Of a DNA stretch of 64,000 bases, positions 60,001 to 64,000 are shown piece after piece. Position 1 is the stretch's first letter; the number at the start of each line of letters is the position of its first letter. The stretch is from a virus. Its lineage: Duplodnaviria > Heunggongvirae > Uroviricota > Caudoviricetes. Position numbers: made by a program. The stretch is from IMG/VR virus record IMGVR_UViG_2721755646_000010, one strand, 5' to 3'.

Positions 60001-63000
60001 CGGGTGATTCGTGCAGCTGGCGGCGCTGGTGCACTGTCTGACTGGTTATTACGTCACGTGAAATCCTGCCAGTGGCCACACGGCGATTATCATCACAGCG
60101 AAACCGTTATTCACAGTTACGGTGCTGGCGCAATGGTGTTGTGCTGGCACTGCGACAACCAGCTGCGCGACCAGACCTCCGAATCACTTGAGCAACTTAC
60201 TCAACAAAATCTGACAGCCTGGATGATTGACGTCATACGCCATGTAATGAATGGCACGCAGGAGCGGGAATTATCGCTGGCTGAATTATCCTGGTGGGCA
60301 GTCTGCAATCAGGTGGTGGACGCATTACCTGAGGCAGTATCGCGTCGCTCTCTGGGATTACCGGCGGAAAAAATCCGCTCCGTATACCGTGAAAGCGACA
60401 TCATACCGGGAGAACAGACCGCCACCAGCATACTGAAGCAGCGCACAAAAAATATTGCGCTACCGCCTCACACCCACCAGCAACAGAACCCACCACAGGA
60501 AAAGACGGTGGTCAGCATTGCCGTTGATCCGGAGTCTCCGGAATCCTTCATGAAACGACCTAAACGTCGCCGCTGGGTAAATGAGAAATACACACGCTGG
60601 GTAAAGACACAGCCGTGTGCGTGTTGTGGTAAGCCAGCGGACGATCCTCATCATCTGATTGGTCATGGTCAGGGCGGAATGGGAACAAAATCCCACGATA
60701 TTTTCACGCTACCGCTGTGTCGGGAGCATCACAACGAGCTTCATGCGGATCCGCTGGCGTTCGAAGAAAAGCATGGTTCCCAGGTTGATTTAATTTTTCG
60801 TTTTCTTGATCACGCCTTTGCAACCGGCGTGCTCGGGTAAAAGAGGTTACTGATGCGTATAGAGTTTGTTTTGCCTTACCCGCCGACGGTGAACACCTAC
60901 TGGCGACGTCGTGGCAGCACATATTTTGTATCAAAAGCCGGTGAGCGTTATCGCCGGGATGTGGCACTTATTGTTCGCCAGCAGCGGCTGAAATTAAACC
61001 TGTCCGGAAGGCTGGCGATAAAGATTATTGCAGAGCCACCGGATAAGCGCCGTCGTGACCTGGACAATATCCTGAAAGCACCACTGGATGCGCTGACGCA
61101 TGCCGGACTTCTCATAGACGACGAGCAGTTTGATGAAATCAATATTGTGCGCGGCTAGCTCGTTTCTGGTGGGCGGCTGGGCGTGAAGATTTACAAAATT
61201 GAAAGTGAGTGAGCATAAATATGATATACCCGGAAATTACAGGCAAAAGCGGTGAGCATTTACGCCTGAAAACGCTGGAAAGTGTCTGGATCCAGGGGAA
61301 ACTGCGTATGTGGGGGCGTTGGTCGTATATTGGCGACGGTAAGACGGGAAATATGTTCAACCAATTACTGACCTCTAAAAAGCTGACAAAAACGGCAATT
61401 AACGAGGCGCTCCGGAGGATGAAAAAAGCGGGTCTGGACAAACCTGAACTTGAGGCTTTTTTGCGGGATATGATCAACGGCAATCAAAAAAGCTGGCTGG
61501 CACATTGTACCGATTCAGAGGCGTTAATAATCGATAGGGTTATTGGTGAAGTACTGGCAGGTTATCCCGGGCTGCTCAATGTTCTGAGTCAGCGTTATGT
61601 GGGGCGGGGGATGACTAAGCGCAAAATGGCTGAATTGCTGAATGATGCACATCCGGAATGGAGTTTAAGAACCTGTGAAAGACGCATTGAGCATTGGCTA
61701 AAGGTGGCAGAATTTATTTTGTACAAACCAATGGTTATGGCTTTTGGTATAGAGAAAAAAGTTATTGCTTTTTGACGTAAAAACTGCTTCAATTCCGGTA
61801 AGCTTCGCAAAGCTGTACCGCGAGGCGAATAGCAGACATGGACATTTGAAAGAGCCCGCTTTTTGCGGGTTTTTTTATGACTGAAAAACGGCACGGGGCG
61901 TTAAACGCGCTGGTGGTTGCTAATACCGGTCTTTCAACTTGCTGGCTTTTTCGACAAGAGTTATTGGTATGTCACGTTAACCGGAAAAGGGAAAAAGACA
62001 TGCTAAAACAGCAGGATATGACAGAAACCGCCAGAGTGGTGTTTAATGAATTAAGCGTTACCGAACCGGCGACAGTCGGGGAGATTGCGCAGAATACTTA
62101 CCTTTCACGCGAACGCTGCCAGTTAATACTGACCCAGCTGGTTATGGCGGGTCTGGCAGACTATCAGTGCGGTTGTTACAGACGCATTCAGTCCTGAAGG
62201 CTTTTTATTTGTGGTAAATGGGCGGCTGGTGGGGGGGGCGGCACCTGTCAGTCCTTTGCTTATGTGTTGATGATAATTTACCTTTTGGGGCTATAATTGA
62301 GCTAACCAATTGCTAATGAAAGTAAAATTATAATGGCTGTTGTCTGTTCAGTTATCATGGTTTGCTCCCCAATTAATATTTTTCTTGAAAAGGATACGTT
62401 GTCACTTAAGCCAGGCTCAGTCGTTCTGGCCACCAAATGCATCAGGGAGCTTTTCCTTATGCATTATGGCAAAGTTAAAATTGTCGATATAAGCGAATCC
62501 GTCGTAAGTCAATATCTGGAAAGTCAGCATAAGCTGACGAGGACTCGTCTGACTGACATTCCGCTTTACCTGTTGCTGGAACCCAACAATCCTGCGTTGG
62601 CTGCGGCTTTAATTACCAGCCAGGGATTTTCCGGAGAGGTCACGGATATGTTTCTTATGATGGCCTGCCTGTCTCTGTTTGAAACAGATGAACGGATGTC
62701 ATTGTTTTTAAGTGGATGTTTATCCAGCATAAGTGCCAAAGTCAGGGCGATAATTCAGACAGATATATCAGCAAGCTGGACGCTTGGTGCGATTGCTCTA
62801 CAGTTGCATATGAGTGAGAGTTTGTTAAAGACAAAACTGAAAAATGAAGGGGGCATGTTCAGTCGCTTGTTGCTGGAAGAGCGGATGCGTGTTGCTGTAA
62901 ATATGTTATGTTCCCGGTATGGATATGGACAGGCTGTAGCAGAAAAATGTGGTTATTCAAGCCGGTCCTACTTTATTTCTGTATTTCACCGCTATTATGG

Positions 63001-64000
63001 CTTCCCGCCAGACAGATATGTATCCAGGCAAGGGCTTGATTATTGATTTTCATCTGATTATTATTTTTTGGCTCGGCCCTTTAGCTCAGTGGTGAGAGCG
63101 AGCGACTCATAATCGCCAGGTCGCTGGTTCAAATCCAGCAAGGGCCACCATCACAAACCGCCATTAGCTTATCAGGAAGAGCAGACGACACCATAACAGG
63201 GTTGTTGGTGCGGGGCCGGGTCCCCGATGGCGGTCCATTATCGGTATTCTGCGTTGTTAGCTCAGCCGGACAGAGCAATTGCCTTCTAAGCAATCGGTCA
63301 GTGGTTCGACTCCACTACAACGCGCCACACTTATTTTCCAGGCTCGCTTCGGCGGGCCTTTTTTGTATCTGCGCCACGCCCGGCGCATACCAACCACAGA
63401 GCCTTTCGGGGGTGAGCTTACGGAGTGGTCAGTGTGACTTTCTCTGTGGGCAGATCGCTCCCGGGCGTTGGCTCACCCACCCAAAGGAACGTCACGATGT
63501 TTGGAATCTTCAAAAAGAAAACCCGCAGAGCGGCAACGGAAATTAAAAAGTTTGAAAAACGCGATCTGGCACAGGTGGTGATTAACGCCGCATACCTGGT
63601 GGCCTGTGCAGATGGTGAATGTGAGGCATCCGAGAAAGCGAAGATCGAACAGGTACTGCGTAATCAGCCTGCGCTGTCCGCGTTTACGTCAGAAATTAAT
63701 GCGATTAGCGCAACCATTATCGGTCAGCTGGATACGAACTTTAAAACTGGTCGTCGTGCGGCGTTACGTGAGATTGAGGATGTGAAACACGATACGCGTG
63801 AAGCGGAAGATGTGCTGGATGTGGCGGTGGCCATTGCGGAGGCAGACGGCGAAATTGAGCCGGAAGAGCGCAAGGTGCTGGAAGAGATTGCCGGTGTTCT
63901 GGGTCTTCGTCTGGAGAATCACCTGTGACGGTAAAACTGCGCCTGGCTGTGGCTGCACTCCTGCTGTTTCTGGTGGTGATGGTGGATTTCACCAGCAGAA

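Follow-up and report, generated by a model that had tools for sequence, protein, structure and literature searches.

The AraC-type regulator gene between the Q and tRNA genes of an Escherichia coli O157:H7 prophage: very probable identity with psrB and carriage in an exchangeable slot

What is an AraC-type regulator gene doing between the late antiterminator gene and the lysis genes of a prophage? The question is raised by a stretch of 64,000 nucleotides from the IMG/VR virus record IMGVR_UViG_2721755646_000010 (Caudoviricetes), here called the window. Near its right-hand end, in the second of two lambda-like prophages, lies the gene in question:

62333-63046, plus strand: psrB (the z2104 / Sakai ECs_2191 locus), regulator of the AraC/XylS family, 237 amino acids, open reading frame (ORF) with an ATG start.

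The reading offered here, with a probability of roughly 0.9, is that the AraC-type gene is psrB, a known prophage regulator of E. coli O157:H7, with the targets published for it and with carriage as a cassette as described below. Within the AraC/XylS family its product belongs with the subgroup of GadX-, GadW-, YdeO-, AppY- and PatE-like regulators.

How is the gene identified? Location is one line of evidence. The 2.2 kb around psrB are 100% identical to many E. coli O157:H7 chromosomes, including that of EDL933 (CP008957, 1,904,741-1,906,941), and the window corresponds approximately to EDL933 1,842,942-1,906,941. In the EDL933 annotation the surroundings are a tandem pair of lambda-like prophages. 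Prophage 1 starts with an integrase gene adjoining ompW and carries paa/adfO; prophage 2, which is Sp11 in the Sakai annotation, ends with three NleG-family effector genes, then a dinI-like gene and ydfJ in truncated form (ydfJ'). O-island 57 (OI-57) is described as containing adfO (z2053) and nleG2-3, nleG6-2 and nleG5-2 (z2149-z2151) (PMC8565820). Bounded on one side by paa/adfO and on the other by the NleG trio with dinI and ydfJ', the island is OI-57 as given in that paper. psrB shares prophage 2 with a gene of the PerC family (Sakai pchB) and with nleG2-3, nleG6-2 and nleG5-2; carriage on a prophage together with a pch regulator and NleG effector genes is a likeness to the psr family.

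Uniqueness and comparison with the paralogue are the other two lines. psrB is the only AraC-type gene of OI-57, both in the annotation of the island and by a degenerate motif search of the EDL933 loci examined, and a tblastn search of the 64-kb window with the PsrB protein gives a single match. The protein is identical to that of the Sakai Sp11 locus ECs_2191 at all 237 residues; the RefSeq entry at the corresponding EDL933 coordinates is WP_000301797.1. O157 genomes have two places that match psrB. The paralogue, situated in EDL933 at 1,266,008-1,266,721 in the yccA-side prophage, is identical to Sakai Sp4 ECs_1087, and its product shares 215 of the 237 residues with PsrB (91%) in both EDL933 and Sakai. 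ECs_1087 has been called psrA (PMC13502914), and PsrB (z2104, OI-57) is reported as the closest PsrA homologue, with 90% identity (PMC10877973, PMC8565820). It is because of island location, uniqueness in OI-57 and identity to the paralogue that the gene is named psrB, and the same evidence (OI-57 location, identity to ECs_2191, 91% to PsrA) bears out the first-pass annotation of this DNA, which had suspected an AraC-like regulator of prophage origin that reprograms acid-resistance or virulence genes of the host. Comparison with the published PsrB and PsrA brought up nothing different apart from the start annotated in Sakai; the genome and the island are the same. Database names for the exact PsrB protein are generic ('helix-turn-helix domain-containing protein'), and none says PsrB.

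Is the regulator intact, and to which of its relatives is it closest? The ORF runs through all 237 codons, and residues 155-230 match both Pfam helix-turn-helix (HTH) models above their cut-offs: HTH_AraC with 50 bits (cut-off 26.6) and HTH_18 with 37.8 bits (cut-off 33.6). The AraC-family call made earlier is thus confirmed, and the gene is neither the degraded pseudogene nor the protein without an HTH that had been considered as alternatives. The best NCBIfam models are YdeO (NF007407, 106 bits over the full length) and GadX (NF007432, 87 bits, confined to the C-terminal half). As the equivalog cut-offs of these models are 348 and 500 bits, and as identity is 29% to K-12 YdeO and 28% to GadX, PsrB is rejected as an orthologue of either; it is a relative of YdeO, not YdeO itself. 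Identity to GadW is 34%, and to YdeO, AppY, EnvY and GadX 28-30%. A homology comparison with PatE- and Psr-type regulators, giving 91% identity to PsrA and 100% to the Sp11 locus but merely 37-38% to the PatE candidate of EDL933 (OI-8), which aligns with PsrB over 235 residues, likewise rejects PsrB as PatE.

PatE (z0321, OI-8 / CP-933H) resembles PsrB as a prophage-borne, AraC-like activator of acid resistance with two domains and an M..VCSVI start. It differs in being carried by another prophage, by the invertase/tail-fibre region, whereas PsrB is encoded at the junction of Q and tRNA genes. GadX, GadW, YdeO and AppY, which are chromosomal or carried by DLP12, share with PsrB the target logic of gadE activation; the difference is that the PsrB gene is an exchangeable cassette on a lambda-like prophage.

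Structural comparisons point the same way. Among solved structures, the PsrB family profile is closest to the GadX DNA-binding domain (3MKL), followed by Rns, CsvR and ToxT. An AlphaFold model of PsrB has a mean predicted local distance difference test score (pLDDT) of 72, with 81-95 in the C-terminal domain. The modelled C-terminal domain superimposes on GadX 3MKL with a template modelling (TM) score of 0.91, a root-mean-square deviation of 1.5 Å and 42% identity, and superimposes on the DNA-binding domains of AraC, MarA and SoxS too. Rns, CsvR and ToxT align with both domains of the model, with an overall TM score of just 0.41. PsrB may be pictured as a two-domain AraC/XylS activator, with a beta-rich N-terminal part for regulation or dimerisation and a C-terminal, double helix-turn-helix part for DNA binding.

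Where does the protein start? The Sakai annotation gives both ECs_2191 and ECs_1087 as 195-residue products that start at Met43. However, the N-terminus M..VCSV(I/V) is common to PsrB, the PatE candidate, YdeO, AppY and GadW (it is not found in EnvY or GadX), and this supports the 237-residue start of RefSeq EDL933 as the likely one, in preference to the 195-residue start of Sakai.

Selection can also be assessed from the two paralogues. For psrA against psrB, the ratio of nonsynonymous to synonymous substitution rates (dN/dS) amounts to 0.43 overall, falling to 0.27 within the DNA-binding domain, and because of these values psrB is, as judged from the sequence comparison, under purifying selection. 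Of the 22 amino-acid differences between PsrA and PsrB, 17 are within residues 1-130. Of 830 E. coli records with a match to the psrB DNA, 588 match at 99% identity or more. The intact ORF, its conservation and purifying selection together rule out a pseudogene. As to distribution, the PsrB family is found essentially in E. coli and Shigella only, in variants of 39% to 100% identity, in keeping with the several Psr homologues noted in a review (PMC10877973).

What is the role of PsrB? Its targets and phenotypes are taken from the literature, whereas identity, integrity, domains, cassette boundaries and context come from the present sequence analysis. PsrB directly binds the hdeA promoter at -132 to -45, the same region as PatE (PMC10877973), and the gadE promoter (PMC10877973, PMC8565820). 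Induced PsrB leads to higher acid resistance at pH 2.5-3.5 and to better survival in the mouse stomach (PMC10877973). Like PsrA, it represses type III secretion by the enterocyte effacement locus (LEE) indirectly, via raised GadE and YhiF (PMC10877973, PMC8565820). By the published experiments, binding of PsrB to these two promoters, which belong to the acid fitness island of the host, raises GadE (and YhiF) and activates both acid resistance of the glutamate-dependent type and the chaperones HdeAB.

Several points weigh against the identification of the gene as psrB with its published role. The z2104 label is a presumptive one, reached through location, uniqueness and paralogue identity instead of a direct match to a z2104-tagged record. 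The psr locus labels in the literature are themselves not fully reliable: psrA (z1789) is assigned to OI-50 / CP-933N in reviews (PMC10877973, PMC8565820), but the OI-50 site in finished EDL933, the potB-side prophage at 1,630,000-1,679,000 with espK, espN and nleL, has no AraC gene. In the PsrB model, the N-terminal half (five predicted beta-strands in residues 5-53, followed by helices) reaches a moderate pLDDT of ~45-73. Promoter-like sites found by consensus scan in the psrB region are no more numerous than expected from shuffled sequence. Deletion of psrB alone has little effect on secretion, the effects being obtained when PsrB is supplied in trans or induced (PMC10877973, PMC8565820), and the native contribution of psrB may be small.

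Could psrB be intact, but a redundant paralogue that is largely silent, with PsrA acting in the lysogen and PsrB only if over-expressed or if the prophage is induced? This is possible, although on balance unlikely. Unlike deletion of psrA, that of psrB is without significant effect on type III secretion, PsrB being active in trans (PMC10877973, PMC8565820), and psrA, not psrB, is among the differentially expressed prophage regulators (PMC13502914). The upstream region (62198-62332), however, is identical to that of the psrA locus at 131 of 137 positions and offers no obvious reason for lower transcription, and induction of PsrB does improve both survival in acid and transit of the mouse stomach (PMC10877973). 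Base composition would suit a silent gene, as mildly AT-rich DNA is expected where xenogeneic silencing operates. The description of psrB as AT-rich in the first-pass annotation holds in so far as its G+C content is 43.8% against 50.3% for the window, but the bias is mild only, the Q-like gene itself having 45.0%. An intact ORF conserved at 99% or more in 588 records, and a dN/dS of 0.43 (0.27 in the DNA-binding domain) that signals purifying selection, speak against silence.

How is psrB placed in the prophage? The features upstream of it are:

61209-61775, plus strand: Q-like late antiterminator gene (DUF1133), 188 amino acids, at which the Q-lysis junction starts.
61847-61877, plus strand: strong hairpin with a U-run, candidate tR'-type terminator, ~75 nucleotides past the stop codon of the Q-like gene.
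62000-62197, plus strand: small conserved ORF of 65 amino acids, possibly winged-helix, which precedes the variable slot in both prophages.
62270-62297, plus strand: putative sigma-70 promoter (ATGATA-16-TATAAT, 10/12 in a consensus scan), 36 nucleotides before the psrB ATG.

Prophage 2 is homologous to prophage 1 over 59772-62269, and homology resumes over 63073-63362; the exchangeable psrB piece is 62270-63072 (803 bp). Its counterpart in prophage 1 is 15304-16476. The methyltransferase gene that had been noticed in this equivalent slot is indeed there (window 15380-16438, DNA methyltransferase in RefSeq), followed by the same tRNA pair. The first base of the putative psrB promoter, 62270, comes right after the last base of homology with prophage 1, 62269. 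psrB is a self-contained 'moron' cassette with a promoter-like site of its own, set in an exchangeable slot between the Q region and the tRNA genes. It would be expressible in the lysogen, and upon induction RNA polymerase modified by Q would read through it as well.

The Q-like protein matches Pfam DUF1133 with 349 bits, Phage_antitermQ with 33 bits and PHROG 753 ('anti-termination protein Q-like') with an E value of 6e-81; in Sakai the gene is ECs_2193, annotated 'phage antiterminator'. With this gene upstream, and with a SASA esterase, holin, lysozyme and Rz downstream in EDL933, the locus is a Q-lysis junction, as the first reading of the DNA had it. The 65-residue ORF (RefSeq WP_000917763.1; PHROG 331, function unknown, E value 4e-37) is within the block common to prophage 1. 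Its weak match to Pfam TrmB (E value 0.0066) is below the cut-off; some database records name it 'TrmB family'.

The hairpin at 61847-61877 reads AAAGAGCCCGC-UUUUU-GCGGGUUUUUUU. The leader in which it is found, 61776-61885, has a predicted fold of -37.6 kcal/mol (z = -3.6), and a weak match to isrK at 61802-61875 (19.8 bits, E value 0.22) is below threshold. By analogy with lambda tR'/6S RNA and with StxS of Shiga toxin (Stx) phages, 61847-61877 is probably the terminator of a late-promoter leader RNA that Q overrides. With such a terminator upstream, psrB, the tRNA genes and the TerB-like gene that follows them would lie in the late transcript too.

The arrangement recurs elsewhere. The module consisting of small ORF, psr and tRNA genes is found downstream of four different Q types in other genomes, and in the case of one more distant Psr homologue the gene is placed after the tRNA genes instead. 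The inducible phage phiSTEC1575-Stx2k has a Psr homologue of 91.6% identity directly upstream of ileZ-argN-argO and stx2A/stx2B (stretch 5001-7324). A Psr-type regulator and Shiga toxin are in this phage parts of one late-operon block.

Downstream of psrB is the tRNA unit:

63036-63064, plus strand: putative promoter (TTGATT-17-TATTAT, 9/12 in a consensus scan), upstream of the tRNA genes.
63075-63150, plus strand: tRNA with a CAT anticodon, the phage gene ileZ (tRNA-Ile2, decoding as Ile once lysidine-modified); called by ARAGORN, Rfam 72.5 bits.
63151-63250, plus strand: remnant of argN (tRNA-Arg, TCG), from alignment to argN of the psrA locus.
63251-63327, plus strand: tRNA-Arg (TCT), phage argO, argO5 in Sakai; called by ARAGORN, Rfam 67.3 bits.
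63340-63369, plus strand: terminator-like hairpin with a T-run that closes the tRNA unit, found by scan; an 8-bp stem with 6 G-C pairs, followed by TTTTTTGT.

RefSeq and Sakai give the CAT tRNA as tRNA-Ile / ileZ5, and the closing hairpin is conserved at the psrA locus. The 100-nucleotide spacer between ileZ and argO is, from its alignment, a decayed argN. Set against argN at the psrA locus, which is intact, the spacer retains the acceptor, D and T arms, its anticodon arm having been replaced by a longer one. Neither ARAGORN nor Rfam makes a tRNA call in the remnant. Its fold has a cloverleaf outline, with a z of only -0.5, no better than shuffled sequences. At a permissive threshold, Rfam gives nothing convincing beyond the two tRNAs, matches to plastid-ycf2 and Six3os1 being tRNA/terminator artefacts. 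The unit resembles the ileZ-argN-argO of Stx phages in its genes, their order and its place between Q, which is upstream, and the stx slot downstream; it differs in that argN is decayed in prophage 2 and TerB/DUF3927 genes are in place of stx.

Elsewhere in the window, other Rfam matches (58607-58781, 11703-11852, 51346-51397 on the minus strand and 37971-38037 on the minus strand) are two sok RNAs, DicF and sar RNA. Both sok antitoxin RNAs adjoin hok-type genes.

After the tRNA unit come two overlapping genes:

63497-63928, plus strand: TerB-family gene, 143 amino acids, ATG start; Sakai ECs_2190, 'TciA/TerB-like protein'.
63925-64000, plus strand: 5' part of a gene for a DUF3927 / TciB-like membrane protein of 55 amino acids, GTG start, which runs off the window.

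The order first proposed for this region, a tRNA pair, a TerB-like gene and a hydrophobic ORF at the window edge, is borne out by these coordinates. Residues 31-138 of the TerB-like protein match Pfam TerB (PF05099) with 53.4 bits against a cut-off of 24.4, the PHROG 632 match has an E value of 1e-68, and the translation contains two ADGE-x4-E motifs. The hydrophobic ORF, starting with GTG at 63925, overlaps the TerB stop by 4 nucleotides (GTGA). Following it beyond the window in EDL933, as had been suggested, reveals the full 55-residue DUF3927 protein (WP_000216636.1), with two hydrophobic stretches and a match to PHROG 1470 ('TciB-like', E value 4e-30), and then the esterase, holin, lysozyme and Rz genes already mentioned. 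Translational coupling joins the TerB-like gene and the DUF3927 gene into a pair whose homologue in P1 is tciA-tciB.

Is the pair peculiar to this prophage? It is a known, widespread phage accessory module, and both the tRNA genes and the TerB-like gene are common cargo among lambda-like phages. The two genes are adjacent also in the P1-like phage JL22, as tciA-tciB-tciC (TciA 40.6% identity), in Evi, a lambda-like phage (97%), and in Machinavirus jumbo phages (66-75%), with 75% identity in a jumbo Salmonella phage. Each time the pair is near tRNA genes or late genes, and it is beside tRNA genes in the jumbo and P1-like phages. P1 tciA-tciB is alike in having a TerB-family gene followed by a small DUF3927 membrane protein gene, with tRNA genes adjoining in both cases. 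Prophage 2 differs in that there is no annotated tciC and in that the pair is placed in a lambda-like late-operon slot; in the Stx2k phage the same slot is that of stx2.

Related prophages have other contents here. In CP-933N, Q is directly followed by the TerB pair, without psr or tRNA genes; the TerB-like gene (12008-12370 of EDL933 1,630,000-1,679,000) has an internal stop, and the DUF3927 partner is intact. In prophage 1 the slot after the tRNA genes (window 16821-17090) has a match to the small RNA STnc100 (175 bits) and is without a TerB/DUF3927 pair. On the opposite strand of that slot is a match to AgvB, the anti-GcvB small RNA, at 56.6 bits against a threshold of 56.

Could the TerB-like gene be a working tellurite-resistance determinant? 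That is very unlikely, in spite of the Pfam TerB match, a PHROG annotation that says 'tellurite resistance' and two TerB-typical ADGE-x4-E motifs that are intact. In the EDL933 annotation terZ, A, C, D and E are all missing beside it, the neighbours being tRNA genes, the DUF3927 gene and the SASA esterase gene. The sole conserved partner is the 55-residue DUF3927 protein, as in P1 tciA-tciB, which was named by similarity rather than by assay, and the CP-933N copy is interrupted by a stop. Moreover, O157 has a ter operon in OI-43/48, and it is there that tellurite resistance maps. For the TerB/DUF3927 pair as a whole, tellurite resistance is likewise unlikely; its most likely role would be an accessory one, associated with the membrane, in the lysogen or late in infection. 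A search of the four proteins with PADLOC gave no defence-system match, two marginal ones (E values 0.003-0.005, ~14 bits) apart. In full-text literature on TciA, TciB and DUF3927, the relevant papers are solely on P1-like phages, and to our knowledge no function has been demonstrated for the TerB/DUF3927 pair in P1 or in a lambda-like prophage.

Two further ideas are put forward speculatively, and it is rather improbable that either is right. One is a double wiring of psrB. Its own cassette promoter would provide basal expression in the lysogen, and read-through by Q during SOS induction would boost PsrB; the Q might possibly come from a related co-resident prophage. The other is a real function for the TerB/DUF3927 pair as a membrane-acting module, which could serve to exclude superinfecting phages, to confer tolerance of colicins or to control when lysis occurs; this idea draws on the stx slot and on the tRNA neighbours in three unrelated phage types.

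Does the AraC-type protein chiefly regulate the phage itself, i.e. its late genes and the tRNA/TerB unit? This is the least probable explanation and hardly credible, as, in spite of the position of psrB in the late operon between Q and the lysis genes and the constant occurrence of psr genes on lambda-like prophages, the exchangeable slot (a methyltransferase gene in prophage 1, no such gene in CP-933N) argues that psrB is dispensable for the phage, the closest relatives GadW, GadX, YdeO, AppY and PatE are without exception regulators of the host's acid fitness island, and the published binding is to host promoters (PMC10877973).

With the AraC-type gene taken as psrB, its biology is already published and experimentally characterised, and no new biology is gained; what the present analysis adds is the cassette boundaries and the exchange with a methyltransferase gene, the place of the module immediately before stx in an Stx2k phage, support for the 237-residue start, the mismatch in locus labels and the wide occurrence of the TerB/DUF3927 pair. 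Double wiring of psrB, if true, would couple prophage induction to the host programme of acid resistance and type III secretion. PsrB is an example of prophages rewiring a core stress regulon (GadE) and, via GadE, virulence (LEE) in enterohaemorrhagic E. coli.

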